A DNA stretch of 22,725 bases from a virus (Duplodnaviria; Heunggongvirae; Uroviricota; Caudoviricetes), in IMG/VR virus record IMGVR_UViG_2681813227_000023, positions 1-22,725 of that record; one strand, written 5' to 3'. The position numbers and the translations under genes were made by a program. Position 1 is the first letter of the stretch; each line of letters starts with the position of its first letter. Below, piece by piece: positions 1 to 20,254 of the stretch. The notes beneath the pieces are model-generated. The model ran no database searches. It was not told the origin of the DNA and was given only the letters and a program-made list of their open reading frames with translations.

Positions 1-195
1 TTAATTATTCTGCTGATTTTCTTCCATCTCGGCTTCTGCCGCCAGTGATTCTATTTTATCTGCGAATATTGCTGACAGTGTTGCAAATTCAGCATCAGTG
101 ACAGCGGGAATTGGAACAAACCTGATCCCGCTGTGTGCAAGCATGTTTGCAGTTTCAAGGCATTTCCTTAAATCTGCTGGTGATGCCCTGTTCAT
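1..195 (-). CDS. Hypothetical small protein (64 aa), translationally coupled to the upstream methyltransferase
   Basis: ATG at 195..193 overlaps the methyltransferase TGA stop (194..192) as ATGA; own stop TAA at 3..1. The 104-aa version in the ORF track begins at a GTG inside the methyltransferase gene and is less likely. No recognisable motif. Confidence 0.4.
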   Translation of the reverse strand: MNRASPADLRKCLETANMLAHSGIRFVPIPAVTDAEFATLSAIFADKIESLAAEAEMEENQQNN

Positions 196-842
196 GCTGC
201 ACGCTCCCGCCCCTGATTGTCTGTTGGTGACAGCGGAGCATTGCTGAATGCATTTGTTAATCCGGCAATATCCAACGCGTATCCAGGGTGTAGTTGCACT
301 GCCGGGTCTTCGCACTGATTACCCCAAACATCGAAGCCATGAGACGACTGGCGGGCGAACAGTTCAATGCGAGAAACATCGCCTAACAATTGCACAAGTT
401 TTTCACGAACGATATCTGGTTTTCTTGAATGCTCAAGCCGCGGTGCGGTAAATGACTGAACGATCCCTGCATTAATGCGCGTAGGTAGTTTTCCCTTTAC
501 CGCAAACAGGCAATCTTCACTATTGGCGCGAGTCATGTGTCCCATACCCATAACCAGTTTATCTGGTTGTCGACTACCACATTTTATCCACGTGAAGCCC
601 TTCATGGTCATCAGACGGAATCCCCAGGCTTCAACAACTTTTAGTGCTTCGAGTGGTTGTGTTGGCACCCACCACATGGCCAACAGACAGTTTTTATCGG
701 CCAAGTCCCACACAGGAAGGCGGCAGATATCCAGCACACTCATAACCGGATATTTAAAACCTGCACCGCGATTACCATCTGCGGCTTTGTCCCGGTATAC
801 CCAGGGTGGATCTGCATAGATTAGTGTGTATTTCTTATTCAT
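192..842 (-). CDS. MT-A70 family DNA N6-adenine methyltransferase (216 aa)
   Basis: N-terminal MNKKYTLIYADPPWVY contains the DPPW catalytic motif typical of MT-A70/phage adenine methyltransferases. ATG at 842..840 preceded by GGGGTGG; the ORF-track GTG at 854 is an upstream alternative. Confidence 0.8.
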   Translation of the reverse strand: MNKKYTLIYADPPWVYRDKAADGNRGAGFKYPVMSVLDICRLPVWDLADKNCLLAMWWVPTQPLEALKVVEAWGFRLMTMKGFTWIKCGSRQPDKLVMGMGHMTRANSEDCLFAVKGKLPTRINAGIVQSFTAPRLEHSRKPDIVREKLVQLLGDVSRIELFARQSSHGFDVWGNQCEDPAVQLHPGYALDIAGLTNAFSNAPLSPTDNQGRERAA

Positions 843-1134
843 AAACCACCCCACAACATCCTATGCCGCTATAGTCGCCACGGCGAAGGCCGTTACCTTT
901 TGTGATACATTGGTCCCTGCGAACCGCGATCCTTGCACGCTCAACATCACCAGAAGCAACATCCATACACTGAAGCCAAAGGTGGGCGGCAATGCGGAAC
1001 TGCCCTTTTTTCTCTCTTTCAATCGCGCGTTTTTCGATCTCTATCGCCGCAGGAGTAACGGCAACAACCTTTGAAGGGCTGCGCATTGAAACCTTATTCA
1101 TGTGATATTTTTCAAGTCGGCTTAACTTTCTCAC
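835..1134 (-). CDS. Hypothetical protein (99 aa from GTG at 1134; 89 aa if ATG at 1101)
   Basis: Open frame whose TAA stop (837..835) overlaps the methyltransferase start by 8 nt in another frame. GAGAGGG lies about 9 nt upstream of the GTG. No recognisable domain. Confidence 0.35.
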   Translation of the reverse strand: MRKLSRLEKYHMNKVSMRSPSKVVAVTPAAIEIEKRAIEREKKGQFRIAAHLWLQCMDVASGDVERARIAVRRDQCITKGNGLRRGDYSGIGCCGVVYE

Positions 1135-1243
1135 TTAATCCAACCCTCTCTGAAAATTAATGCCAGCAGATAAAGCCATGCTGTAACAGAGGCCAGGAAT
1201 AAGTACCATCCTGACCATTTGCTCCAGTGCCTTAGCAGCGCAC

Positions 1244-1492
1244 TCATGCAGCGTTGCTCACGGGACGATATACACGTTGCTGAACAGGAGGTTTTTTACC
1301 CTGGAACTCTGCCGGGCTTGCTGCCTGACGTTCATCAAGCCAACGCTCAACTTCGTCACGGTTCCATGCGCAGCGTTTATCGGTGATATACCAGCGTTTA
1401 GGAAATTCCCCTGCGCGCTCCATACGGTCGATAGTGCTCCATGACAGTGGCACCACCGCCAGGAGTTCCTTCTTACCTAATGCACCTTTCAT
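1244..1492 (-). CDS. AlpA-family phage regulatory protein / excisionase-like HTH protein (82 aa)
   Basis: Sequence ...WSTIDRMERAGEFPKRWYITDKRCAWNRDEVERWLDER matches the AlpA/Xis-like winged-helix signature (K/R-G-EFP ... W..EV..WL). ATG at 1492 with AGAGAGG upstream. Confidence 0.7.
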   Translation of the reverse strand: MKGALGKKELLAVVPLSWSTIDRMERAGEFPKRWYITDKRCAWNRDEVERWLDERQAASPAEFQGKKPPVQQRVYRPVSNAA

Positions 1493-1541
1493 AAATACCT
1501 CTCTTGGTTGCAGTGCGGCGCGCGTGGCGCCGCGGTGGTGG

Positions 1542-2423
1542 TTACATAGATGTTTCGTTTAATTCTTCTCGACGAACGCTGTAAACATCGGTGGCTTTTG
1601 CCAGCAGTTCGTCATCATCTGAAAGTTTTTGTGCAATGTATTTGTAAGCCTTATCCAGTTCGGAGACAGTGCTGTAATTCATCGCTGCGCTGGTAAAGGC
1701 CATCAGCATTTCTTCTGGATCACGGCTATCCGCTTTACGCGTTTGCTCATCAGGCTTTTTCACTGTTTTAGCGTTGATCAGACTGTTCATTCCCGCAGCA
1801 GTGGTCGTTTGCGGAGTAATGTCTCGCTCAACGCGCGGTGCCGTTTCCTGTAATTCGTCAGGGGTGTAAACACCGAGAAGTACATCAGGAGCGTGCAGGC
1901 GAGCCCATCGTTTCGTGCAAAGATAGGCAAGCTGCTGGCGCGGATCCTGCTCCCACAATGGAGAGTTACGCACTCCGGCTTGCGCCATACTGATGGTAAG
2001 CTCACGGGGTTCTGCTTCTCCTTTAAGAACTGCTGACACAGTTACCGTCAGATTCGGTGATTTATCTGTTTTGCCGTTAACATTCGACCAGTCACCGCTC
2101 CAGCGATAATTCAGGCGTGTCGCTAGCAGGCTGGAAGAGGATACAACCGCGTTTACCAACTGTGCTTCGTAGCCTAACGTTCCGTTTACCACATGCGTTT
2201 TCTGCGCCACGGCGAAAGGGTTCATTCCCCACTGTGCCGCCTGCATGGTCACCGCCAGGCAATCGGCAGGTTTGCCTTCAAGATGTTTCGGCACAGTCGC
2301 TTTGCTTTGTGACATCAACTCCGCGAAACGCACCAGTTGATTCATGCCCTCGGGGCTGAAGATTGCCGCAGCAGTGCCTACAGTTGCGCCTGGTTGTGAT
2401 GTGATTGCGATATCATTGCTCAT
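1542..2423 (-). CDS. Single-strand annealing recombinase, Bet/RecT family (293 aa)
   Basis: WGMNPFAVAQKTHVVNGTLGYEAQL and a later ERDITP segment resemble lambda Bet (YGLNPW...GIVPVVGVDG; ERDITP). Start ATG overlaps the upstream exonuclease stop (ATGA). Confidence 0.75.
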   Translation of the reverse strand: MSNDIAITSQPGATVGTAAAIFSPEGMNQLVRFAELMSQSKATVPKHLEGKPADCLAVTMQAAQWGMNPFAVAQKTHVVNGTLGYEAQLVNAVVSSSSLLATRLNYRWSGDWSNVNGKTDKSPNLTVTVSAVLKGEAEPRELTISMAQAGVRNSPLWEQDPRQQLAYLCTKRWARLHAPDVLLGVYTPDELQETAPRVERDITPQTTTAAGMNSLINAKTVKKPDEQTRKADSRDPEEMLMAFTSAAMNYSTVSELDKAYKYIAQKLSDDDELLAKATDVYSVRREELNETSM

Positions 2424-3241
2424 ACGTACATATCCTGTTTACGTGCCCAGTCAGGGCGTTTAATAATTTCCACTCCGCCCCATTCATCGTTGATGCGGCA
2501 TTCGTGATAGGTATTCAGATCCCGGCGGAACAGAGCGTTCCCGGCATCGACATCTGGCGCATCCAGCTCGAACACGCGTACCGGATACCGACCACAATCA
2601 ATGCTTTCGCTCACGGCAAGAAAGAAAAAACCATGCGGCTGACCAGTAACCCTCATTGCGCCTTCGCGGTACATTGCGTCCTGCACGTGGTAGCGGAATT
2701 CCTCGATGTGACGTGCAAAACGGTCCATATCTGCAACCTTTTTCACGTCGACGATCACGTTGTGCTCGTTCAGCCATTTGTCTGGACGAATTCGGCACAA
2801 CTCACCCGTCTCTTCATCGTTCCAGTACATTGATGCTTCGCAGTAACCAGGTGCTTCCAACATCCAGCGTGCCGCTGGATGAGCCATTGCGCTATCACGC
2901 ATCAGCTCCAGTTTTCGCCACTGCTCGACATCAAGTACCGTAATACCCATATCCGCCACATCACGAAGAAGCATTTCTTCGTCAGCTTTACCTTGTTTTG
3001 TCCGACGATCGAATTTCGGTGAAACGATGAAGCGTTTGTCGAATTCTCCAGGTTCCAGAAGCAGGCAGTGCAATGCGGTTCCCATATCCAGTGCAGACTT
3101 TTTCTCTTCGTCTTCTGGTGCTGCCTGAACCCATTTAAGAAGCGCCGGATTCTTGGCAACCATGTCCAGTTGCGACTTACTCACGCCGTCACCTGCGTGG
3201 TAGTCTTCGTTGCTGATGTCGAAATAAATTCCCGGTTTCAT
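2420..3241 (-). CDS. PD-(D/E)XK exonuclease, RecE C-terminal-domain-like / exonuclease VIII-like (273 aa)
   Basis: N-terminal GIYFDISNEDYHAGDG and a D...VDVKK nuclease core (CRIRPDKWLNEHNVIVDVKKV). Sits directly upstream of and coupled to the Bet/RecT gene, the usual exo plus annealase pairing. Confidence 0.7.
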   Translation of the reverse strand: MKPGIYFDISNEDYHAGDGVSKSQLDMVAKNPALLKWVQAAPEDEEKKSALDMGTALHCLLLEPGEFDKRFIVSPKFDRRTKQGKADEEMLLRDVADMGITVLDVEQWRKLELMRDSAMAHPAARWMLEAPGYCEASMYWNDEETGELCRIRPDKWLNEHNVIVDVKKVADMDRFARHIEEFRYHVQDAMYREGAMRVTGQPHGFFFLAVSESIDCGRYPVRVFELDAPDVDAGNALFRRDLNTYHECRINDEWGGVEIIKRPDWARKQDMYV

Positions 3242-3537
3242 GCCGCGTCCCTCTGCCCATCAAGCTGATCTGCCAGATCCCAGCGGGCGATAATTGCCAT
3301 TGCCTCGCGCCGATAGGCATCCATCAGTTCTTCGAACTCAGGGCTGTCTTTAGCAGCCTCCAGTACTTCCTGACGAACGCCTTTGCCTGTTACAACGTCG
3401 AAAGTTGAGGACAGTTGATGAAGTCGGATGCTCTCAATCAGTTCAACTTGTCGGTCATATAGCTGTTCTGACAGGCGGTAGTCCTTGTCGAATGCCAGCA
3501 TGATTTTTTGAAGATTTTTCTGCTGATTAACGTTCAT
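3238..3537 (-). CDS. Hypothetical early protein (99 aa)
   Basis: ATG at 3537..3535 (MNVNQQK...) with GGGAGGG 7-8 nt upstream; stop overlaps the exonuclease start (ATGA). No recognisable domain. Confidence 0.55.
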   Translation of the reverse strand: MNVNQQKNLQKIMLAFDKDYRLSEQLYDRQVELIESIRLHQLSSTFDVVTGKGVRQEVLEAAKDSPEFEELMDAYRREAMAIIARWDLADQLDGQRDAA

Positions 3538-3539
3538 TA

Positions 3540-3692
3540 TCAGCCCTCCCATATCTCGTTATCGTTGGCCACATCGCGAGCTTCTTTGCTGACGAAAGCC
3601 CACTTAATGCCTTCCTGTAAGGTGCGGAACTTCCAGCTCATGAATCCGCATGCAGTAACGCAGTACCAACCGTTGATGATTTTCCACTGCAT
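3540..3692 (-). CDS. Small ORF, 50 aa (MQWKIINGWYCVTACGFMSWKFRTLQEGIKWAFVSKEARDVANDNEIWEG), absent from the supplied ORF track
   Basis: Hand-translated: ATG 3692..3690, TGA 3542..3540. Its stop lies 2 nt before the ATG of the next gene (TGATAATG) and GAGGT lies 9 nt upstream of its start. First ORF downstream of the leftward operator pair. Confidence 0.35.
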   Translation of the reverse strand: MQWKIINGWYCVTACGFMSWKFRTLQEGIKWAFVSKEARDVANDNEIWEG

Positions 3693-3711
3693 AACTTGTT
3701 ACCTCGGTCTG

Positions 3712-3726
3712 TTACCGTTGAGGTAA
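3712..3726. promoter_or_regulatory. Operator-like palindrome TTACCgttgaGGTAA (leftward operator region, site 1)
   Basis: Perfect 5-bp inverted half-sites with 5-bp spacer; one of six copies in the window. An extra TTACC half-site lies at 3699..3703. Confidence 0.5.
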
Positions 3727-3774
3727 TAATTATGCGTATTTGGTTTGATGTCAATAGATATGAGTTAAAAAAAA

Positions 3775-3789
3775 TTACCCATTAGGTAA
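3775..3789. promoter_or_regulatory. Operator-like palindrome TTACCcattaGGTAA (leftward operator region, site 2)
   Basis: Same motif, 63 bp centre-to-centre from site 1, between the repressor-gene terminator and the first leftward ORF. Confidence 0.5.
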
Positions 3790-3802
3790 TAGTATAGGCA
3801 AT

Positions 3803-3826
3803 AAAAAAGCCGCCAGAAGGCGGCTT
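3803..3826 (-). terminator. Rho-independent terminator downstream of the repressor gene
   Basis: On the minus strand GCCGCC-TTCT-GGCGGC followed by TTTTTT, about 20 nt after the repressor stop codon. Confidence 0.65.
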
Positions 3827-3846
3827 ACTTACTGAAAAGTATGATT

Positions 3847-4431
3847 TTATTGTTTGTTTTTTTCGTTCTGGTTGATGACAAATTCAATGTAACTTTCGAT
3901 CTTTGCTTTCTCGGTTTCAGGTAACAATGCGTAGCGCGAGCGGTCATAGTTGATAGTTGCAGGGTCGTGCGGGTGAATCAGTAGTTCATATCCGTGACGC
4001 CCGAATGCGGATGCAACATTCTCCAGGGTGGAAATGGAAACGCTGACCTCATTGTTTAACAGGCGGCTGATTGTCACCTGGGCGACGCCGGATGCGCGGT
4101 GAAGTTTTCCCTGTGTTGAAAGGTCGCGGCTTTCGCTCATCCAGCGTTCCAGGTTGTGAGCCGCCAGCTGACCAATGTCGCTTGGGCCGACAGGCTGAAA
4201 ACCTTCCTGAGAAAGCGAGCGATCGATATCAAGCCAGTTACGGGGTTTATTGGCGGCAGCTTCAATTTTTCGCGCAACCTGGTCGCCGATAACCTTCTTG
4301 CCAAGAGCCCAGCGGTTTACCAGATTTGCCTGAGTTCCAAGTTTTTCTGCCATCCGCGTCTGAACACCATTGAATTCACGGTCGATCAAGTCGTTGAGAT
4401 TTTGCCTGCGGACGTCCTGGATACTTTTCAT
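3847..4431 (-). CDS. Putative immunity repressor with two HTH-like segments and no S24 peptidase domain (194 aa)
   Basis: HTH-like stretches QTRMAEKLGTQANLVNRW and VAQVTISRLLNNEVSVSISTLENVASAFG. Transcribed divergently from a Cro-like gene across an operator-bearing intergenic region. No G-S-M / Ser-Lys dyad autocleavage motif seen. Confidence 0.65.
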   Translation of the reverse strand: MKSIQDVRRQNLNDLIDREFNGVQTRMAEKLGTQANLVNRWALGKKVIGDQVARKIEAAANKPRNWLDIDRSLSQEGFQPVGPSDIGQLAAHNLERWMSESRDLSTQGKLHRASGVAQVTISRLLNNEVSVSISTLENVASAFGRHGYELLIHPHDPATINYDRSRYALLPETEKAKIESYIEFVINQNEKNKQ

Positions 4432-4486
4432 TTTCTGGAAAATCGCCTCATATATGAATCAGTAGATGATTCAATTTAAAGCAATA

Positions 4487-4501
4487 TTACCCAACAGGTA
4501 A
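4487..4501. promoter_or_regulatory. Operator-like palindrome TTACCcaacaGGTAA in the repressor/cro intergenic region
   Basis: Same motif as above; further GGTAA (4514..4518) and TTACC (4535..4539) half-sites follow. Confidence 0.5.
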
Positions 4502-4585
4502 ATGCACCCCACAGGTAACTATCCTTGATTTTTGTTACCTTATGGGTGAATATTTATTATCTGAAATAAATATCAGGCAATAGCT

Positions 4586-4816
4586 ATGAGCGATAACGGA
4601 CATTTCGATTTCAAAAAGCACTGGCTTGCACTTACTCCGGATGAGCGTGAAGCCTTCGCACAGGAAGCCGGAACGACGAGTCACTATATCCAGACTCACT
4701 TAACAGGTAAGCGCAAAATGCCAGGTAAGGTATTGATGAATGGGCTTTTTAAAGCCTGTAAAACAAGACAATGGCTGCGCTCAAAAGCAGAACTGGCATA
4801 CTTCTTCTACTCATGA
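4586..4816 (+). CDS. Cro-like small DNA-binding regulator (76 aa)
   Basis: Small basic protein transcribed divergently from the repressor; HTH-like segment FAQEAGTTSHYIQTHLTGKRK. Assignment rests mainly on position. Confidence 0.55.
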   Translation: MSDNGHFDFKKHWLALTPDEREAFAQEAGTTSHYIQTHLTGKRKMPGKVLMNGLFKACKTRQWLRSKAELAYFFYS

Positions 4817-4835
4817 TATCCAGCCACAACCCTCT

Positions 4836-4861
4836 GTAGACCGCCATCCGGCGGTCTTTTC
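4836..4861 (+). terminator. Rho-independent terminator after the cro-like gene
   Basis: Stem AGACCGCC / GGCGGTCT with ATCC loop followed by TTTT, about 20 nt after the stop. Confidence 0.55.
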
Positions 4862-4966
4862 ATATCTATTCGCACCTCAAAGGTAATAAAAAACCAAATC
4901 TGGTTGACCTTTTTTTTGTGTCAGCACAAAATGACCGTAATCCCAATACTAATAACAGGGCTTACC

Positions 4967-5167
4967 ATGGAAATCATTACACGTATTGATGCCGCAAAGC
5001 GCGGACTTAAACGCTACTACACCGGAAAACCATGTAAGCACGGACATGACAGTGAACGCTGGGTTTACAACGGACACTGTGTTGAGTGCACCATGGAATC
5101 AAACCGTCGTATCAGGGCAGAGATTAAGCAGATCATGATTAATTCCTCCCCACAACATTCAAGCTGA
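4967..5167 (+). CDS. Small putative zinc-binding protein (66 aa; C-x-H-G-H ... C-x-x-C), cII-position gene
   Basis: ATG at 4967 with AGGG 9 nt upstream (the ORF-track start at 4904 is TTG). KPCKHGH...HCVEC motif. Function unknown. Confidence 0.45.
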   Translation: MEIITRIDAAKRGLKRYYTGKPCKHGHDSERWVYNGHCVECTMESNRRIRAEIKQIMINSSPQHSS

Positions 5168-5182
5168 TAGCGGAGATTAATC

Positions 5183-5998
5183 ATGAGCAGACATGCAACA
5201 GATTGGGCCTGGGAGACAGATCCGGGTAGCTCATCATTAAAGCTCATACTGCTCTCGATGGCTGACAGAGCCGATGAATATAACCTCTGCTACCCCAGCA
5301 TAGAACGCCTCGTTAAAGACACTTGCCTGAATAAAAAAACCGTGCAGGCCGGGCTTATATCGCTCATGAAAATGGGGCTTATTTCAGATACCGGAGAGAG
5401 AAAGGGAGCGACAAAAAGAGTGCGGGTTTTCTCTCTTAATATAACCAAAAACGGGAACATTAAAGGCAACCGGGAGGGGGGCAATGAACCCGAAAACGGT
5501 AATGTTACCGAAAACGGGAATATACCCAAAAACGGGATGTTGAATGATCCCAAAAACGGGATGTTGAATGATCCCAAAAACGGGATCCAGAACCAGTCAT
5601 ATAACCAGTCATTTAACCAAGAGAGGGAGAGCAGGACAAAAAGCGGGGATTCTGTGCCTCATGACCCCGGAGCAAACAACGCCGTGATGAATAACTTTGT
5701 TCCTCCTGGTGGGCCAGGGCAATTAGGCAAATTTGTCATGCATGAACAATGGCAGCCATCAGATGACTTTCTTCGGAAAAGCTCATTGCAGGGGATCTAC
5801 CTGGACAGTCTGCCAACGGCACAGGAACTTGCAGAGTTCAGAATTTACTGGATGGCTGAGGGTAAGGCATACCATCAGGCACAGTGGGAGCAGAAGCTGG
5901 CAAGGCGGCTGCAGATTAGCAGACAGAAGCAATCAACATTACCTGATAACAACGTTCCGCACTGGAACAGCCCTGAAGCATGGGAGGATTTCTTGTGA
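5183..5998 (+). CDS. Replication initiator (lambda O-like role): N-terminal winged-helix, internal iteron-encoded repeats, DnaT-like C-terminus (271 aa)
   Basis: N-terminal ...LKLILLSMADRADEYNLCYPSIERLVKDTCLNKKTVQAGLISL resembles phage replisome-organiser HTH domains. Central low-complexity KNG-repeat region is encoded by DNA iterons. GGAG SD before ATG 5183. Sits directly upstream of the P-like gene. Confidence 0.7.
   Translation: MSRHATDWAWETDPGSSSLKLILLSMADRADEYNLCYPSIERLVKDTCLNKKTVQAGLISLMKMGLISDTGERKGATKRVRVFSLNITKNGNIKGNREGGNEPENGNVTENGNIPKNGMLNDPKNGMLNDPKNGIQNQSYNQSFNQERESRTKSGDSVPHDPGANNAVMNNFVPPGGPGQLGKFVMHEQWQPSDDFLRKSSLQGIYLDSLPTAQELAEFRIYWMAEGKAYHQAQWEQKLARRLQISRQKQSTLPDNNVPHWNSPEAWEDFL
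5445..5586. repeat. Iteron array (six copies of approximately CC(C/A)AAAACGGGA) inside the initiator gene: candidate replication origin
   Basis: Copies at about 5445, 5489, 5507, 5525, 5548 and 5572, the last three within an almost exact 24-bp tandem repeat (atcccaaaaacgggatgttgaatg); further short AACCAGTCAT repeats follow. Confidence 0.6.
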
Positions 5999-6780
5999 AC
6001 AACGTTTTTACCGCGATACAAAACCGTGACGGAGAAGCCCTTTCTCGCATGTCAGGTTATGAGCATCAGTACGTCAACAATGACAATGTGGTGAACATGT
6101 CAGCAGAGAGGCTTGTTGATGCCCTTTTTAAACAGCTGAAACAACTGTTTCCGGCGGCAGTGGTAACCAACCTGAAGACGCCAGAGCAGGAAGTTGCTGC
6201 AAAACAGCAGTGGATTGCTGCGTTTGCCGAAGGGGGGATCCGAACCCGTGAACAGGTTTCTGCTGGTATGCGCCACGCCCGCGCCAGTGAATCTCCGTTC
6301 TGGCCGTCTCCAGGGCAATTTATCAAGTGGTGCAAAGACAGCAAGATGGTTCTTGGCGTCACCATTGACGATGTGATGGCGGAGTTTCACCGGTACAGCA
6401 AGGAAAAAAGTTTATATCCTGGTGGTCCCGAAAGATTCCCGTGGCGACATCCGGTTATGTACTGGGTCGTATGTGATACCCGCCGTGCAATGTATCAGCG
6501 CCAGCTTAGCGAGATTGAGGTTGAGAAACACGCGCGCAGGCTGCTCGATGATTGGGCGAAAAAGGTGGCTTCCGGACAGCAGATACCCGATCCGGTGATC
6601 AGCATACAGGCAAAGCCAGAGCCCATGAGTACGCCTCCGGACACAGGGAGAGACGTTTACCATCCACCAGGGCGAAGTTTCGGGTGCATGCCTAACGCCG
6701 CCACCCTTGGGGGAATAACACCGGCGCAGTGGCTGATGGAGGAATACAGGCGGGGAAAGGCGGCAGGATTTATCAAGTAA
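5980..6780 (+). CDS. Replication protein P-like helicase loader
   Basis: KQQWIAAFAEGGIRTREQVSAGMRHARASESPFWPSPGQFIKWCKD aligns with lambda P (RRQWVLAFRENGITTMEQVNAGMRVARRQNRPFLPSPGQFVAWCRE). Start is ATG 5980 or GTG 5995 (GTGA overlap with the initiator stop). Confidence 0.8.
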   Translation: MGGFLVNNVFTAIQNRDGEALSRMSGYEHQYVNNDNVVNMSAERLVDALFKQLKQLFPAAVVTNLKTPEQEVAAKQQWIAAFAEGGIRTREQVSAGMRHARASESPFWPSPGQFIKWCKDSKMVLGVTIDDVMAEFHRYSKEKSLYPGGPERFPWRHPVMYWVVCDTRRAMYQRQLSEIEVEKHARRLLDDWAKKVASGQQIPDPVISIQAKPEPMSTPPDTGRDVYHPPGRSFGCMPNAATLGGITPAQWLMEEYRRGKAAGFIK

Positions 6781-6817
6781 TACCAGCGCGATAGCGCATT
6801 TTTTTACGTCTCAATAA

Positions 6818-6832
6818 TTACCCATCAGGTAA
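6818..6832. promoter_or_regulatory. Operator-like palindrome TTACCcatcaGGTAA downstream of the P-like gene
   Basis: Same TTACC-N5-GGTAA motif, outside the immunity region. Confidence 0.45.
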
Positions 6833-6879
6833 CAAAACATTCTAAACTCTATTGATTTCGTGTCTTATGTGGTTTTTAA

Positions 6880-6894
6880 TTACCTTAGAGGTAA
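6880..6894. promoter_or_regulatory. Operator-like palindrome TTACCttagaGGTAA just upstream of the 6898 start codon
   Basis: Same motif, 62 bp from the 6818 site; its right arm overlaps the ribosome-binding region of the next gene. Confidence 0.45.
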
Positions 6895-6897
6895 ATC

Positions 6898-7251
6898 ATG
6901 AGAAAACAGATACAGGCTCTTGGTCGACTCAAAACAGGCCAGATGAACAAAACAGAATCTGCGTATTGCCAGCACCTTGAGCAGCGTAAACGTGCAGGGG
7001 AAATCGCCTGGTATCGATTCGAGGGTATCAAGTTGCGGTTAGCTGACAACTGCTTCCTGACTGTAGATTTTGCCGTGATGTTGGCTGACGGGCAGTTGGT
7101 GATGGTGGACGTTAAGGGAAGTAAGTCAGTCTTTACTGACGATGCGAGAGTCAAGATGAAGGTTGCGGCAGACAGCTATCCGTTTGTCTTTCAGGTTGCT
7201 TATCCAAAACCTAAAAAGCTCGGTGGTGGATGGGAGGTTGAGGAACTATGA
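6898..7251 (+). CDS. DUF1064-like phage protein (117 aa)
   Basis: Recalled resemblance to DUF1064 phage proteins (ESAYCQHLEQRKRAGEIAWYRFEGIKLRL...FLTVDFAVMLADGQLVMVDVKG). Stop overlaps the HNH gene start. Confidence 0.5.
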   Translation: MRKQIQALGRLKTGQMNKTESAYCQHLEQRKRAGEIAWYRFEGIKLRLADNCFLTVDFAVMLADGQLVMVDVKGSKSVFTDDARVKMKVAADSYPFVFQVAYPKPKKLGGGWEVEEL

Positions 7252-14547: not shown

Positions 14548-14754
14548 ATGTGCATGGGTAGCTCACCGTCAGTGCCTGCAACACCAGAAGTTCAGGCAGC
14601 ACCACAGGAGCAGGATGCCGCCGTTGTTGATGCCCGCAACGAAGAAACTCGTCGCCGTCGCGCTGCTGCTGGTCGTAGTTCTACGCTGCTTACCGGTTCT
14701 CAGGGCGACACATCAACCGCTAATACCAGCGGTAAAACGCTACTTGGTCAGTAA
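14548..14754 (+). CDS. Hypothetical small Arg-rich protein (68 aa) preceding the portal gene
   Basis: ATG with GGAG SD; the leader GGAGTCATTGA is repeated identically before the portal ATG. Arg-rich stretch EETRRRRAAAGR. The overlapping 14528 frame looks less coding-like. Confidence 0.45.
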   Translation: MCMGSSPSVPATPEVQAAPQEQDAAVVDARNEETRRRRAAAGRSSTLLTGSQGDTSTANTSGKTLLGQ

Positions 14755-14768
14755 CCGGAGTCATTGAA

Positions 14769-16448
14769 ATGGCGGAAACAACTAAAGAGCGATTGAACAA
14801 ACAGTTCGCACAACTTGAAAGCGAGCGTCAGTCGTTCGAGCCGCACTGGCGCGAGTTGAGTGATTACATCAACCCGCGTGGTTCCCGCTTTCTGACTTCT
14901 GAGGTCAACCGTAACGATCGACGCAATACACGCATTATTGATTCAACCGGGACTATGGCGGCGCGCACTCTCGCCAGCGGCATGATGTCAGGCATCACAA
15001 GCCCCGCGCGTCCGTGGTTTCGCCTGGCTACGCCAGATCCTGAAATGATGGATTATGGCCCTGTTAAGTTGTGGCTTGAGGCAGTGCAGAACCGCATGAA
15101 CGATATGTTCAATAAGTCGAATCTCTATCAGTCGCTGCCGCAGTTATACGGAAGCCTCGGCACATACAGCACCGGTGCAATGGCGGTACTGGAGGATGAC
15201 GAGGACATCATTCGCACAATGCCATTCCCGATAGGCAGTTACTACCTTGCTAACTCACCTCGTGGCAGTGTGGACACCTGTTTTCGCAAGTTCTCTATGA
15301 CTGTTCGTCAGCTTGTTCAGGAGTTCGGGCTAAATAACGTCAGCGAATCCGTAAAAAGCATGTGGGAAAGCGGCACCTACGAGAAGTGGATTGAAGTGAT
15401 GCATTCGGTTTACCCGAACATTGACCGCGATACATCGAAGCTGGATAGCAAGAACAAGCCATTCAAATCGGTTTATTACGAGGTTGGCGGCGATAACGAC
15501 AAGTTGTTGCGTGAGTCCGGATTCGATGAGTTTCCAATTATGGCTCCGCGCTGGGAAGTTAACGGCGAAGATGTTTATGGATCATCATGCCCGGGTATGC
15601 TGGCGCTTGGACCTGTTAAGGCATTGCAGCTTCTCCAGAAACGCAAGTCGCAGTTGATTGATAAAGCCACCAATCCGCCGATGGTTGCTCCGACTTCCCT
15701 CAAGAATCAGCGCGCCTCCCTTCTTCCTGGCGACATCACGTATATCGATCAGATTACTGGTCAGGATGGTTTCAGGCCTGCTTATCTGGTTAACCCCAGT
15801 ACAGCAGATTTGGTGGCAGACATTCAGGACACTCGTCAAATCATTAACAGCGCCTACTTTGTCGATCTGTTCATGATGTTGCAGAACATCAATACCCGCT
15901 CGATGCCTGTGGAAGCGGTGATCGAAATGAAAGAAGAAAAACTTCTGATGTTGGGGCCGGTTCTGGAGCGTCTGAACGACGAATGTCTTAATCCTCTCAT
16001 TGACCGCGCTTTCTCGATGATGGTGCGTAAAAACATGCTGCCGCCACCGCCTGACGCGATGGAAGGTATGCCCCTGAAGGTCGAATACATTTCCGTCATG
16101 GCTCAGGCGCAGAAGTCTATCGGCCTGTCCAGTCTGGCGTCTACGGTCAACTTCATTGGTCAACTTGCGCAAGCGAAACCAGAAGCTCTCGACAAACTCA
16201 ACGTTGATCAGGCGATCGATGCATTCGCTGATATGTCCGGAGTGTCTCCAACCGTCATTGTTCCGCAGGAACAGGTTGAGCAGGCTCGCCAGCAACGGGC
16301 ACAGCAACAACAGCAGCAACAAATGATGGCGATGGGGATGGCGGCGGCACAGGGTGCCAAGACGCTAAGCGAAGCTAAAACTTCGGATCCGAGTGTTTTG
16401 TCAGCTATGGCGAATGCAGTTAGTGGTCAGGGTGGGCAATCACAATGA
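14769..16448 (+). CDS. Portal / head-to-tail connector protein, T7 gp8-like (559 aa)
   Basis: Size, position after terminase, and Gln/Ala/Met-rich C-terminus (QARQQRAQQQQQQQMMAMGMAAAQGA) resembling the T7 gp8 C-terminus. Confidence 0.75.
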   Translation: MAETTKERLNKQFAQLESERQSFEPHWRELSDYINPRGSRFLTSEVNRNDRRNTRIIDSTGTMAARTLASGMMSGITSPARPWFRLATPDPEMMDYGPVKLWLEAVQNRMNDMFNKSNLYQSLPQLYGSLGTYSTGAMAVLEDDEDIIRTMPFPIGSYYLANSPRGSVDTCFRKFSMTVRQLVQEFGLNNVSESVKSMWESGTYEKWIEVMHSVYPNIDRDTSKLDSKNKPFKSVYYEVGGDNDKLLRESGFDEFPIMAPRWEVNGEDVYGSSCPGMLALGPVKALQLLQKRKSQLIDKATNPPMVAPTSLKNQRASLLPGDITYIDQITGQDGFRPAYLVNPSTADLVADIQDTRQIINSAYFVDLFMMLQNINTRSMPVEAVIEMKEEKLLMLGPVLERLNDECLNPLIDRAFSMMVRKNMLPPPPDAMEGMPLKVEYISVMAQAQKSIGLSSLASTVNFIGQLAQAKPEALDKLNVDQAIDAFADMSGVSPTVIVPQEQVEQARQQRAQQQQQQQMMAMGMAAAQGAKTLSEAKTSDPSVLSAMANAVSGQGGQSQ

Positions 16449-16741
16449 CAGATTACGAAGACGATCAACTGAAAGAAGAAAACGCCCGTAAGCAACGTGA
16501 CATGGCACAGCGTGAAATTGATGACATTCGCTTTGTCATGAGCAGTGAACAGGGGCGTCGGGTTGTCTGGTCGGTGCTGGAGAAAGGCCGTGTGTTTTCC
16601 GCTATCTCACCGATGGACGCTATGGCAATGGCATTTAATGAGGGGCAACGCAATCTGGCGCTGGAACTGTTTCAGCGCGTTATGGCGCATTGCCCTGAAC
16701 AGTATTTGAAGATGGCCAAAGAGGCCAGTGAACAGGAGTGA
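16445..16741 (+). CDS. Hypothetical morphogenesis-module protein (98 aa)
   Basis: ATGA overlap with the portal stop; stop 2 nt before the scaffold start. Confidence 0.5.
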   Translation: MTDYEDDQLKEENARKQRDMAQREIDDIRFVMSSEQGRRVVWSVLEKGRVFSAISPMDAMAMAFNEGQRNLALELFQRVMAHCPEQYLKMAKEASEQE

Positions 16742-16743
16742 TC

Positions 16744-17439
16744 ATGAATTTATTTGAGCGTTTGCTGTATCGCCGTCTTTGCAATGAGCAACCAGTCGAT
16801 GGTGGAGCAGCTCCGGCTGCGTCAGAACCGTCAGCGCCTGCAGGTGATAACCCTGCTCCAGTTGGTGATCCATCACAACAGGAAGGTGATAAGCCACAAC
16901 CTGTTGCTGATGGCGATAAACCTGCTGATGACAAAAAGCCTGAAAACGATAAGCAGGATGAAAAAAAGGACGGCGATAAACCAGAGGGTGCGCCTGAAAA
17001 GTACGAGTTTCAGGCTGCCGAAGGCGTAGAGCTGGATACAGAAGCGTTGAAGGAATTCGAGCCGGTGGCGCGAGAACTAAACCTGACCAACGAGCAAGCG
17101 CAAAAGCTGGTTGATGCTTATCCGAAGATTCTGGCAGGTGTTCAGCAGCGCCAGGCAGAAGCCTGGCAGAAAACAACCGAGCAGTGGGCTGCGGATGTAA
17201 AAGCCGACAAAGAAATCGGTGGCGACAAGTTGATTTCTAACCTTAGCGCCGCACAGCGTGCGCTTGACCAGTTCGGGACACCTGAACTCAAAGAATATCT
17301 GAACACCACCGGGCTGGGTAATCACCCTGATCTGGTCAAAACGTTCGTGAAAATCGGAAAGGCGATGTCTGAAGATGGCATGGTCACCGGTGGTAATGAA
17401 GGCCAGCGTAGTGCGGCCGAAGTGCTCTATGGCAAATAA
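16744..17439 (+). CDS. Putative scaffolding protein (231 aa)
   Basis: Highly acidic, Pro/Asp/Lys-rich low-complexity N-terminal half and helical C-terminal half, located between portal and major capsid genes. ATG 16744 with AGGAG SD. Confidence 0.6.
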   Translation: MNLFERLLYRRLCNEQPVDGGAAPAASEPSAPAGDNPAPVGDPSQQEGDKPQPVADGDKPADDKKPENDKQDEKKDGDKPEGAPEKYEFQAAEGVELDTEALKEFEPVARELNLTNEQAQKLVDAYPKILAGVQQRQAEAWQKTTEQWAADVKADKEIGGDKLISNLSAAQRALDQFGTPELKEYLNTTGLGNHPDLVKTFVKIGKAMSEDGMVTGGNEGQRSAAEVLYGK

Positions 17440-17453
17440 GAGAGGAAATGACA

Positions 17454-18440
17454 ATGGCTGTTAAAGGCTTAACTGCGCTAACGCTGGCTGACTGGGGTAA
17501 GCGCGTCGATCCAAACGGGAAAGTCGATAAGATTATCGAGCTTCTCAATCAAACTAACCCAATTCTTCAGGATATGCCTTTTGTTGAAGGAAACCTTCCT
17601 ACCGGACACCGAACCACCATTCGTTCTGGTTTACCTTCCGCTACCTGGCGTTTGCTGAACTATGGCGTACAGCCAAGCAAATCAACCACAGTGCAGGTCA
17701 CCGATTCCATTGGCATGCTGGAAACCTATGCTGAAGTCGATAAGTCTCTGGCTGATCTGAACGGTAATACTGCCGAATTCCGTCTGTCTGAAGACCGAGC
17801 ATTTATTGAAGCGATGAATCAGGCGATGGCGCAGACACTGTTTTACGGTGATTCCAGCGTTAACCCTCAGCAGTTTATGGGACTGTCCTCCCGATATTCC
17901 AGCCTGTCTGCGGGTAATGCTCAGAACATCATTGATGCTGGTGGCACGGGTACAGATAACACTTCAATCTGGTTAGTGGTGTGGGGCGAAAACACCGTGC
18001 ATGGCATCTTCCCGAAAGGACAGAAGGCTGGCATTCAGATGGAAGATAAAGGCCAGGTGACACTGGAAGATGCTAATGGCGGCAAGTACGAAGGTTATCG
18101 TACCCATTATAAGTGGGACAACGGGCTGACATTACGTGACTGGCGCTATGTAGTTCGTATCGCAAACATTGATGTCAGTAATCTTGACGCTCCTTCTACT
18201 GCCGCGAATATCGCAAAACTGATGATTCGTGCCCTTCATCGAATCCCAAATCGTGGGATGGGACGTCCTGTTTTCTACATGAACAGAACCATTAACGAAG
18301 TGCTTGACCTGCAATCTCTGGAGAAGAGTTCTCTGGCGATCAGCGTGAAAGAGACAGAAGGCGAATGGTGGACAGCACTTCGTGGTGTGCCGATTCGCGA
18401 AACTGACGCACTTCTGGAAACAGAAGCCCGCGTGGTGTAA
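17454..18440 (+). CDS. Major capsid protein (328 aa from ATG 17454; ATG 17448 also possible)
   Basis: About 330-aa protein after the scaffold gene, strong GAGAGGA SD, and a terminator after the next two small genes, as expected for a highly expressed coat gene. Confidence 0.75.
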   Translation: MAVKGLTALTLADWGKRVDPNGKVDKIIELLNQTNPILQDMPFVEGNLPTGHRTTIRSGLPSATWRLLNYGVQPSKSTTVQVTDSIGMLETYAEVDKSLADLNGNTAEFRLSEDRAFIEAMNQAMAQTLFYGDSSVNPQQFMGLSSRYSSLSAGNAQNIIDAGGTGTDNTSIWLVVWGENTVHGIFPKGQKAGIQMEDKGQVTLEDANGGKYEGYRTHYKWDNGLTLRDWRYVVRIANIDVSNLDAPSTAANIAKLMIRALHRIPNRGMGRPVFYMNRTINEVLDLQSLEKSSLAISVKETEGEWWTALRGVPIRETDALLETEARVV

Positions 18441-18491
18441 CGCCTGTTATTAACCTGTGGGCCGCAACAGGCCCACTAATGGAGAAAGAAG

Positions 18492-18929
18492 ATGATCACC
18501 GACAAACTGTTGATGTTCTCCGAAGCACAGGCGGTAACTGATACCGCGGCTTCTACTGACGTAATCGATCTCGGTCCAATTGACGGAAACCGTCGCGATA
18601 TCGGTGTGGGTTACCCGCTTGAGTTTTGGGTGCTGGTTAACGAAGCCGCCACGGCAAGTGGTGAGGCAACTGTAAACATCCAGTTGCAGACGAGTGAGAA
18701 TAACAGCTCATGGTCCACTATTTATGATAGTGGCGCACTGGCAAAGGCTACCCTGACAGCAGGTAAACGAGTTGTTTCTGCAAAGGTGCCTGCCGGTGTT
18801 CTGCGATATCTGCGTGTTAACTACTCCGTCGCAACTGGCCCACTAACGGCCGGCAAATTCACTGCGGGTATCAGTCTGGATGTTGATGCCAATACGCCGT
18901 ACCCGATCCGCTCAAAAGTAACTGGTTAA
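18492..18929 (+). CDS. Putative capsid-associated structural protein (145 aa)
   Basis: Position immediately after the capsid gene; beta-rich composition. No confident family assignment. Confidence 0.45.
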   Translation: MITDKLLMFSEAQAVTDTAASTDVIDLGPIDGNRRDIGVGYPLEFWVLVNEAATASGEATVNIQLQTSENNSSWSTIYDSGALAKATLTAGKRVVSAKVPAGVLRYLRVNYSVATGPLTAGKFTAGISLDVDANTPYPIRSKVTG

Positions 18930-18939
18930 GGTGATATCG

Positions 18940-19275
18940 ATGTCAGGTGAGAAACCAAGATACCGCGTTCTGCGCCTCTCTCATATCCATAACACACTGT
19001 GGCCGGAGGGGGCAGAAATCGAATACGAAGGTGAGCCTGGTAGCGCACTGGAACCTGTTAACGATGCAGCCAGACAGGCAAAAGCAAAGGTAGCAGGAAA
19101 GGTGTCTATGGCAGCAACCAGCACCAAAATCATCAACGATGTGTCAGATGATGGTGAACTGGATAAGCTCCGTGAAGAGTACGAATTGCTCTTTAACGAG
19201 AAGCCACACCATAACGCTAAAGCCGAAACGCTCCGCGAGAAGATCGCAGATAAGCGTAAAGAACTGGGCGTGTAA
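18940..19275 (+). CDS. Hypothetical structural-module protein (111 aa)
   Basis: ATG 18940 with AAGGTGA SD; followed by a strong terminator. Confidence 0.45.
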   Translation: MSGEKPRYRVLRLSHIHNTLWPEGAEIEYEGEPGSALEPVNDAARQAKAKVAGKVSMAATSTKIINDVSDDGELDKLREEYELLFNEKPHHNAKAETLREKIADKRKELGV

Positions 19276-19293
19276 GCCTCGCGAATCCGACAA

Positions 19294-19313
19294 GGGGCTT
19301 CGGCCCCTTTATT
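19294..19313 (+). terminator. Rho-independent terminator (GGGGC-TTCG-GCCCC plus TTTATT)
   Basis: GC stem with UUCG tetraloop and U-tract directly after the capsid-gene cluster. Confidence 0.65.
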
Positions 19314-19325
19314 GCAGGAGTGTAT

Positions 19326-19649
19326 ATGGAACTCGTAAACCTCAAAACCGGCACTGACAGCTACCAGGATGAGAGCGGAGAAACCAGAACTCGCGATGAA
19401 TACCCGTGGGGGCTGTGCATCACTCTTAATAACGACACATTGAATAAGCTGAAGGCGCAACCTCAGGGCGTCGGAACAGAAGTGATGATAACTGCAAAGG
19501 CTGTTATTCGAGGCCTGTCTGCCAGAGAAACTGACGATGGTGTTAATCGCAGCGCCGATCTGCAGATCACTGATATGGCGATCGCTCCTGTTTCCGGGGA
19601 TGTAGAAAAATCAGCGGCTGAAACTCTGTACGGTAACGGAGGTGAGTGA
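19326..19649 (+). CDS. Hypothetical structural protein (107 aa) sharing a C-terminal SAAE(V/T)LYG motif with the scaffold protein
   Basis: ATG 19326 with AGGAG SD. C-terminus ...EKSAAETLYGNGGE versus scaffold ...QRSAAEVLYGK. Confidence 0.45.
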   Translation: MELVNLKTGTDSYQDESGETRTRDEYPWGLCITLNNDTLNKLKAQPQGVGTEVMITAKAVIRGLSARETDDGVNRSADLQITDMAIAPVSGDVEKSAAETLYGNGGE

Positions 19650-20254
19650 TGGCCTCTGTAGTAGAGATCTGTAATCGTGCGCTGTCCAATATTGGCAATA
19701 GCCGCAGCATTAACAGCCTGACGGAAGCCAGCAAGGAAGCGGGGGAATGTTCGCTGCACTTTGAGGCCTGCCGTGATGCTGTGCTTTCTGATTTTGACTG
19801 GAACTTTGCTACCAAACGCGTGGCGCTTGCAGATACGAGCAATCCACCGCCTGACTGGGAATATGCGTACCAGTACCCGTCCGATTGTCTGCGCATTACT
19901 GAAATTATGCTTCCTGGTGTACGCAATCCAACAGCAGCAATGCGCGTTCAGTACGAAGTTGGTGCAGACACCAACGGAACAGGAAAATTGATCTATACAG
20001 ACCAGCCGCAGGCATGGCTCAAGTATGTCTCTCGCGTTTCAGATGTGAACATGTTTGATGCCATTTTTATGGAGGCGCTGGCCTGGCGTCTTGCGGCAGC
20101 CATTAACATGGCGCTGACTGGGAATGCGGATCTCGGTACATTTGCTCTCAATATGTACAATCGCGTGATTCTTAGTGCTGGTTCGCATAGCCAGAATGAA
20201 TCACAGGAACCACAGCCACCGGTTGACGAGTTTACCATTGCGAGGTTGTCCTGA
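19649..20254 (+). CDS. Putative head-tail adaptor / tail tubular protein A-like (201 aa)
   Basis: Size and position match T7 gp11; N-terminal VEICNRALSNIG...INSL resembles the gp11-type N-terminus (VNDILASIG...VSTL). TGATG overlap with the upstream stop. Confidence 0.5.
   Translation: MASVVEICNRALSNIGNSRSINSLTEASKEAGECSLHFEACRDAVLSDFDWNFATKRVALADTSNPPPDWEYAYQYPSDCLRITEIMLPGVRNPTAAMRVQYEVGADTNGTGKLIYTDQPQAWLKYVSRVSDVNMFDAIFMEALAWRLAAAINMALTGNADLGTFALNMYNRVILSAGSHSQNESQEPQPPVDEFTIARLS

Follow-up and report, generated by a model that had tools for sequence, protein, structure and literature searches.

Among the described phage proteins, lambda Gam and GamL are the closest to the system presented here. 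Gam's N-terminal helix enters and plugs the RecB channel for 3′ single-stranded DNA, and Gam has been shown to cause ciprofloxacin hypersensitivity (PMC5218532). GamL, which is the second sequence type among the anti-RecBCD proteins of lambdoid phages, shows by precedent that a Gam-fold protein can have a very different sequence (PMC12315714). Recombination modules are already suspected to hide unrecognised RecBCD modulators, and activation of Old offers a genetic assay for them; the RecBCD-guard systems P2 Old and retron Ec48 react to Gam and gp5.9 (bioRxiv 10.64898/2026.07.10.737580). In this work, two small open reading frames (ORFs) of 50 and 99 amino acids (aa) were analysed at the head of the leftward early operon of a Caudoviricetes virus, the IMG/VR record IMGVR_UViG_2681813227_000023, whose whole analysed stretch of 22,725 nucleotides (nt) is referred to as the window. 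The finding is probably a cryptic Gam-type gene in a Chi-rich phage lineage, accompanied by a well-conserved orphan mini-protein.

An earlier note on this DNA had described the 50-aa ORF followed by the 99-aa ORF as a coupled pair leading into an exonuclease and an annealase gene. The coordinates, the TGA-TA-ATG junction between the two ORFs (TA at 3539-3538) and the downstream genes were all read from the sequence as described (table 1). The stop codon of the 99-aa ORF overlaps the ATG of the exonuclease gene (3241-3239) as ATGA. In the relatives, the junction of the 50-aa and 99-aa ORFs is an ATGA or GTGA overlap, and therefore the coupling of the pair is conserved. An alternative 104-aa version of the second ORF, with its start ATG at 3552, is possible; the 99-aa start was preferred because GGGAGGG is located 6 nt upstream and all homologues begin with MN(V/I)xQQ. 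Both ORFs are already present in the public records of phiV10, TL-2011b and epsilon15, where they are annotated as hypothetical only, and both of their PHROGs (898 and 856) are of unknown function, in agreement with their earlier description as uncharacterised. No functional work on phiV10 p38/p39 or epsilon15 gp36/gp37 was found in the searchable literature. In the RefSeq record of phage Tyrion the 50-aa ORF is not called (L100, 2905-3150) and an opposite-strand ORF of 70 aa (gp39) is called over the same DNA, which is probably a mis-call.

An ORF of 50 codons is by itself unremarkable in the window, whose ORF listing has dozens, and the 50-aa ORF was judged real because it is conserved. Nonsynonymous (dN) and synonymous (dS) divergence was compared with epsilon15, Tyrion, BUCT554, BUCT711, Raoultella and Klebsiella prophages, and one Dickeya prophage. 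Synonymous sites are saturated (dS ≥ 1) in both ORFs across these relatives. Codons 1-26 of the 50-aa ORF show dN of 0.02-0.09, with the exception of the Dickeya comparison (0.20), and the dN/dS of the whole gene is 0.04-0.23, while that of the 99-aa gene is about 0.2-0.3. Both ORFs are real genes under purifying selection.

Both families are found in Enterobacterales only. Homologues of the 50-aa protein occur in Escherichia, Salmonella, Klebsiella, Raoultella, Hafnia, Dickeya and Scandinavium, and the 99-aa family consists of only 31 clusters in an exhaustive profile search of 1.84 billion representatives, which returned no bridge sequences between this family and Gam. With tblastn the two proteins are present in the same 36 phage records; together with the purifying selection, this is the conservation in related phages whose absence the earlier note had named as evidence against the pair. 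The order of repressor, 50-aa gene, optional insert, 99-aa gene, optional insert, exonuclease and RecT is kept across prophages of Dickeya, Raoultella, Klebsiella, Scandinavium, Kluyvera, Pseudocitrobacter, Citrobacter and Ca. Erwinia, to which a 39%-identical metagenomic family member is added. The co-occurrence is strong and not absolute: in Dickeya the second slot holds a 100-aa protein, which was tried as a relative of the 99-aa protein and is not detectably related. A different small ORF precedes the 99-aa member that diverges most (31% identity).

In some relatives, a Glu/Arg/Ala-rich coiled-coil protein of 326-360 aa is inserted between the 50-aa and 99-aa genes (L098 3659-4693, L003 5119-6201, L110 3635-4627, L112 3647-4549, L114 3647-4639 and L118 264-1244 of the loci fetched for comparison). 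The copies of Escherichia coli phiv142-3 and Dickeya are 56% identical, and neither of these two, which were the copies scanned, matches Pfam or PADLOC. The site behaves as a conserved accessory-gene slot. Similarly, some prophages carry a protein of 80-96 aa (MSK..GGPAFP..LRDYFAAKAMQ..MLKAREE) between the 99-aa gene and the exonuclease (L007 5446-5688, L102 3443-3697, L111 3949-4239 and L093 903-1118). A similar sequence of 71 aa, recognised by eye only, is located upstream of GamL in the Klebsiella phage ST11-VIM1phi8.1, and the insert may represent one more small protein associated with recombination modules.

The 99-aa protein is acidic and predicted to be all-helical, with helices at residues 3-49, 56-63 and 66-98; its net charge is -6 and its isoelectric point (pI) 4.7, compared with -10 and 5.0 for GamS. 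No canonical Gam, GamL, Abc2 or MuGam is recognisably encoded in phiV10, and the 99-aa gene occupies the position of gam or gamL in lambda, phiES15, HK639, SEN34, CobraSix and ArgO145. When the family alignment was compared by hhalign with GamS alone the score was 24%; it was 70% against Gam only, 73-78% against four Gam/GamL sequences and 91% (E 1e-6) against nine Gam and GamL sequences. The register is constant in these comparisons, with family residues 25-88 placed on Gam residues 26-90, that is, some 60 C-terminal residues. The real score of 39.6 exceeds the maxima from shuffled columns (17.6) and from shuffled column blocks of 7 or 11 (24.8 and 30.2), and reversed alignments score about 10. 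By the same method, the family scores at most 0.9% against 26 further small early proteins, which were taken from lambda, P22, Rac and related loci. The aligned core of the window protein reads D-S-P-E-F-E-E-L-M-D-A-Y-R-R-E-A-M-A-I-I-A.

Searches of sequence sets pointed to the same protein. In a search by hmmsearch of all 177,635 distinct PDB sequences with the family profile, the top two matches are lambda Gam (5mbv_A and 2uuz_A), with E 0.09 for the family alignment A4 and 0.16 for the broader A7. The family member P0120 has Gam as its best Pfam match (E 0.004, 17.7 bits, residues 31-94 to profile positions 33-96 of 98). In a local set of 4,251 distinct six-frame ORF segments, drawn from all the loci fetched, all top non-family matches of the family hidden Markov model (HMM) are Gam proteins (SEN34 6.7e-4, POCJ13 0.0066, lambda about 0.013 and phiES15 0.017). 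Reciprocally, with an HMM built from Gam only, nine of the 10 family members rank directly after Gam and GamL in this set; one other ORF stands among them, at rank 36, and comes from a fetched lambda-type Gam locus, and among the ORFs listed no other locus outranks the nine. The tenth member, from BUCT711, lies among unrelated ORFs at E 20. Even a plain tblastn comparison of phiV10 with lambda Gam or phiES15 Gam has the 99-aa ORF as its best match. These profile comparisons make it rather probable that the 99-aa family is homologous to lambda Gam. Whether the protein truly inhibits RecBCD is a less certain matter, at best evenly poised.

Several observations weigh against the relationship with Gam. 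All Gam scores are below the formal thresholds, the 17.7 bits of P0120 standing against a Pfam gathering cut-off of 25. The window protein itself has no Pfam match even at E ≤ 10; Pfam and NCBIfam scans at this limit, as well as PADLOC, gave no match for either of the two window proteins. The hhalign score falls to 50% when the broader family alignment is used (A7 vs A5), and is 1.0-1.5% against GamL alone. The margin in the PDB search is small, the next match following at E 0.46 (A7). The motif MNAYxxxDRIExxxW, the best-conserved part common to Gam and GamL, whose mutual hhalign match covers residues 1-18 only, is absent; the 99-aa family starts with MN(V/I)xQQxxLxKIM and is unaligned there. 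Structure searches with the 99-aa protein gave no fold match and did not retrieve Gam, and agreement of its fold with the GamS structure (2UUZ/5MBV) was not obtained. Because it fell outside the family in several membership tests, the 99-aa protein was classed as a variant of Gam and not as a member of PF06064.

The Chi content of the genomes also weighs on this side. In lambdoid phages, an anti-RecBCD gene and abundant Chi largely exclude each other (PMC3784561; PMC12315714 Table 1), and in this lineage Chi (GCTGGTGG) is not avoided. The sites on the top and bottom strands number 8 and 0 in phiV10 (L105), 6 and 0 in TL-2011b (L106), 0 and 4 in BUCT711 (L107), and in all three genomes they are co-oriented with the late genes. 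In phiV10 the expectation is 1.24 from shuffles or about 3.4 from a third-order Markov model, and the latter model gives about 3.2-3.5 on the Chi-carrying strand of the three genomes. The phiV10 sites span 6746-27791; none is found in the early region of 28-39 kb, and the nearest to RecT (27791) is about 2 kb away. The window has two sites on the top strand, at 17937 and 20284, and none on the bottom, again in the orientation of the late genes. With Chi-rich genomes and the N-terminal motif of Gam missing, the actual target of the 99-aa protein may be RecBCD or another.

The same observations would suit a protein unrelated to Gam, namely a coiled-coil accessory factor of RecE/RecT, comparable to P22 Arf/Abc1 for Erf, in which case the resemblance would be that of two acidic helical proteins of the same length. 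Sub-threshold scores that depend on the alignment and range over 50-91%, a fold search without Gam, the different N-terminus, genomes as rich in Chi as those of inhibitor-less phages, and the tight ATGA coupling of the gene to the exonuclease all speak for such a factor. It is nevertheless rather unlikely. The similarity, consistent throughout and at no point formally significant, looks specific and reciprocal, with Gam as the top match of the PDB, Pfam and local ORF searches and the register constant across methods; Arf and Abc1 are themselves among the 26 early proteins with negligible scores, and the shuffles stay below the real score. In addition, phages and loci with another type of exonuclease, such as epsilon15, L113 and L115, also keep the 99-aa gene. 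Homology with Gam is thus the reading that we prefer. In this respect the statement of the earlier note that neither protein resembles gam, kil, abc or ral products stood for the 50-aa protein; for the 99-aa protein it was true of plain similarity and gave way under profile methods. Its suggestion of an anti-RecBCD candidate gained support from the profile link in the case of the 99-aa gene, not as a novel kind of inhibitor, since what is indicated is a divergent form of a known inhibitor family.

In the case of the 50-aa protein, AlphaFold2 with 33 homologues gave a mean predicted local distance difference test score (pLDDT) of 73, with strands at 2-6, 9-13 and 19-22 and a helix at 25-49. The sheet half (MQWKIINGWYCVTACGLMSWKF) is near-invariant and the helix end is variable. 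The remote-homology searches and structure prediction proposed earlier delivered a predicted mini-fold here and the profile link to Gam for its neighbour, and no Gam from the structure searches. In the preferred explanation, the 50-aa protein is a genuine, separate early protein of three predicted strands and a helix, whose invariant surface suggests a conserved partner, either a host protein or a nucleic acid. Its fold was also compared with the DNA-binding domains of the AP2/integrase type, which have the same three-strand-plus-helix plan, and the match did not clearly set them apart from other folds of this plan. By hhalign it scores at most 1% against lambda Kil, cIII and Ral, the KilR family, P22 Abc1, Abc2, Arf, Kil, C3, 17, Ral and 24, and the Rac proteins, and it belongs to no described functional family. 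Its fixed place beside the repressor and its co-inheritance with the 99-aa gene are the sole functional hints. A membrane peptide was also considered and rejected: a stretch of 16 hydrophobic residues averages about 1.0 in a Kyte-Doolittle estimate made by hand, and AlphaFold2 folds this stretch as sheet.

The 50-aa protein could be a regulator of the immunity module, that is, a nucleic-acid-binding mini-domain that tunes early transcription or the choice between lysis and lysogeny and has no part in host takeover; this reading is unlikely. With a similarly low probability, and by analogy of position, it could be a Kil-like host-takeover peptide, for example an inhibitor of division or replication, in the kil slot upstream of gam known from lambda, phiES15, HK639, SEN34 and CobraSix. 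A small gene immediately before a Gam-like gene fits this analogy, and a sheet half that remains near-invariant across genera with saturated synonymous sites is what is expected of a protein that binds a conserved host protein; on the other hand, the hhalign scores against lambda Kil, the KilR family and P22 Kil are 0.1-0.2%. For anti-restriction or host shut-off, both named in the earlier note, this analysis found no support in either protein.

A bolder version would treat the pair as a two-part counter-defence unit, in which a Gam-derived mimic of DNA ends has been retargeted, through its replaced N-terminal helix, from RecBCD to another host or defence nuclease and the 50-aa mini-protein joins it in acting on a host hub that is conserved. 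The family would then form a third Gam-fold branch of new specificity and, if retargeting away from RecBCD were true, the genomes could therefore stay Chi-rich; we consider it very unlikely. That the 50-aa ORF is no gene and owes its conservation to an operator, a leader, an antisense RNA or the like in the DNA or RNA of the operon head is hardly credible, since its location within 30 nt of the operator and promoter and its omission by the annotators of Tyrion are outweighed by a peptide conserved despite saturated synonymous sites (codons 1-26), a good Shine-Dalgarno sequence, a confident small predicted fold, and ordinary RNA folding of leader and ORF (z -0.65) with no Rfam match there.

Further searches gave nothing. 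Single-sequence phmmer against the PDB returned nothing meaningful for either protein, and a "Bagel" match of the 50-aa protein was discarded as an aromatic stretch of 15 residues. A search for related loci with the Gam alignment recovered only near-identical lambda Gam genes and added no diversity, and the family alignment A1 had no matches in species-representative genomes. Candidates that failed as relatives by hhalign include RacC, YdaE, YdaF, YdaG, RcbA, RalR and the N-terminus of RecE from Rac; Kil, cIII, Ral, Ea10, orf60a, orf61 and orf63 from lambda; and the eight P22 proteins listed above.

The preferred explanation is that of a coupled early operon with a divergent Gam-lineage protein and a separate 50-aa early protein, and as a whole it stands at about an even balance. 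Once the two TTACC-N5-GGTAA operators are free of repressor, one early transcript would be made from the leftward promoter, whose first four cistrons, for the 50-aa protein, the 99-aa protein, the RecE-like exonuclease and RecT, would be translated in a coupled manner. From the observed anatomy, coupling, conservation, synteny and sub-threshold similarity we infer that the 99-aa protein, most probably a diverged representative of the lambda Gam lineage, may dimerise through its C-terminal two-thirds and mimic a DNA end. It would in this way inhibit a host end-processing nuclease, with RecBCD as the default candidate, and protect recombination intermediates as well as the ends of the phage DNA, which would allow the RecE/RecT pair of the phage itself to act. 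The docking mode or the target nuclease may differ because the N-terminal helix is not that of Gam and GamL. As for the 50-aa protein, a three-stranded sheet packed on a helix would bind the conserved partner, and the gene is inherited with the 99-aa gene and the repressor.

Table 1. Coordinates, strand and supporting evidence of the features within the early-left part of the window
Feature	Coordinates	Strand	Evidence
RecT single-strand annealing protein	1542..2423	-	Pfam PF03837 E 1e-31; PHROG 561
RecE-like PD-(D/E)XK exonuclease (DUF3799), 273 aa	2420..3241	-	Pfam PF12684 E 2e-21; PHROG 412 exonuclease VIII E 7e-124
99-aa ORF (phiV10 p38, epsilon15 gp36, TL-2011b gp08)	3238..3537	-	ATG 3537-3535, TGA 3240-3238; PHROG 856 E 1.5e-55, positions 1-99/99
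50-aa ORF (phiV10 p39, epsilon15 gp37, TL-2011b gp09)	3540..3692	-	ATG 3692-3690, TGA 3542-3540; PHROG 898 E 1.9e-38, positions 1-50/50
Shine-Dalgarno GGGAGGG of 99-aa ORF	3544..3550	-	6 nt upstream of ATG; inside last codons (W-E-G) of 50-aa ORF
Shine-Dalgarno GAGGT of 50-aa ORF	3701..3705	-	8 nt before ATG
Operator-like palindrome TTACCGTTGAGGTAA, abutting -10 hexamer and start site	3712..3726	.	Perfect TTACC-N5-GGTAA
pL-like leftward early promoter, sigma-70-like: TTGACA 3754-3749, 17-nt spacer, AATTAT 3731-3726	3726..3754	-	Consensus scan
Operator-like palindrome TTACCCATTAGGTAA, upstream of -35 hexamer	3775..3789	.	Perfect TTACC-N5-GGTAA
Intrinsic terminator of repressor gene	3807..3826	-	8-bp stem with 6 G-C pairs, then T-run; terminator annotated in phiV10 record
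Prophage repressor, 194 aa, two helix-turn-helix domains, SPC32H Rep / epsilon15 gp38 type	3847..4431	-	Pfam HTH_3, PHROG 8; corresponds to phiV10 p40

The window derives from a temperate podophage of the phiV10/TL-2011b type (Uetakevirus) and its early region is epsilon15-like; its identity to phiV10 is about 97%. Positions 2145-7050 are 96% identical to phiV10 30379-35302, and positions 11192-22725 are 97% identical to phiV10 1-11534. In the region 7050-11190, from the replication genes to the terminase, phiV10 matches only the short pieces 7854-8075, 8655-8800 and 10580-11191, and this early-right part is mosaic relative to phiV10.

The two palindromes of the immunity region flank the leftward promoter on either side. 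The promoter, predicted from the consensus alone, agrees with it at 10 of the 12 positions. Sites of the form TTACC-N5-GGTAA occur nine times in the window against an expectation of 0.34, and the RefSeq record of epsilon15 annotates repressor-binding sites at the positions equivalent to the window palindromes. As for the repressor itself, that of phage vB_EcoP_ZX5 is identical in sequence to phiV10 ORF40, and its over-expression blocked lytic growth (PMC9782041). Additional perfect or near-perfect palindromes are located outside the immunity region: one pair between the P-like replication gene and the DUF1064 gene (6818-6832 and 6880-6894), a second pair just inside the start of the small-terminase ORF (11278-11292 and 11296-11310), and a single site (14443-14457). 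This suggests that the repressor also controls later operons.

The exonuclease ORF overlaps the RecT ORF by ATGA in the window and in TL-2011b. The RefSeq record of phiV10 shows exonuclease and RecT as a single fused coding sequence of 586 aa (p37; L001 2332-4092) where the window (1542-3241) and TL-2011b have two ORFs, and the fusion may be a frameshift or a sequencing artefact. Away from the early region, a tRNA-Arg(TCT) was found at 14044-14120 (minus strand) by ARAGORN and by Rfam (73 bits), the sole match in the Rfam scan of the window. It overlaps the plus-strand ORF 13863-14114, which by position is the hypothetical protein phiV10p04, and the phiV10 RefSeq has no tRNA there; the coding sequence over the tRNA may be spurious.

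If the 99-aa protein is a working relative of Gam, the epsilon15/phiV10-type phages (Uetakevirus) and many Enterobacterales prophages would leave the class with a recombinase and no RecBCD inhibitor and join the inhibitor carriers. The surveys of Chi and inhibitors (PMC3784561, PMC12315714) would then hold either a systematic blind spot or an informative exception, that is, Chi-rich genomes with a Gam-like gene. It would also provide a natural Gam-type partner for a compact RecE/RecT pair, useful for recombineering, and a natural experiment on which half of Gam matters, the 99-aa family keeping the C-terminal part and GamL the N-terminal helix. With a sheet half that hardly varies between genera, the 50-aa protein offers a good small target in the search for partners. 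Neither of these points comes as a great surprise, because recombination modules are already suspected reservoirs of RecBCD modulators.

Compared with known systems, the 50-aa gene resembles, in relative position and similar size, the genes of three small division inhibitors that lie just upstream of gam (lambda Kil, Rac KilR and P22 Kil); it differs from them by the lack of sequence or profile similarity, and proteins of the KilR type have 62-73 aa. Rac YdaF (DUF1391, 51 aa) is likewise a small early-left gene product of about 50 aa, and the analogy is positional only, with an hhalign score of 0.4% against the 50-aa protein. P22 Arf, Abc1 and Abc2 are also small proteins within a pL recombination module, and they differ from both ORF families, with hhalign scores of at most 0.9%.

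The 99-aa protein and lambda Gam (GamS; PF06064; PDB 2UUZ and 5MBV) are both acidic and all-helical with a long N-terminal helix, of 99 and 98 aa respectively. In both cases the gene is directly upstream of a phage exonuclease and annealase and, as predicted for the 99-aa gene, co-transcribed with them in a pL operon, and the in-register profile similarity includes D-x-x-E-F-x-E-x-M ... R ... I-A. The differences are that there is no significant plain-sequence similarity, that the family lies below the Pfam cut-off and lacks MNAYxxxDRIExxxW, and that its partners are RecE-like/RecT instead of Exo/Bet, in Chi-rich and not Chi-free genomes. GamL of phi80/HK639 belongs to the same size class (93-94 aa), is acidic and occupies the same gene position. 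GamL shares the N-terminal motif with Gam and diverges in its C-terminal part, whereas in the 99-aa family it is the C-terminal part that is Gam-like and the N-terminus that differs. The 99-aa family would be a third Gam type, with a pattern of conservation complementary to that of GamL.

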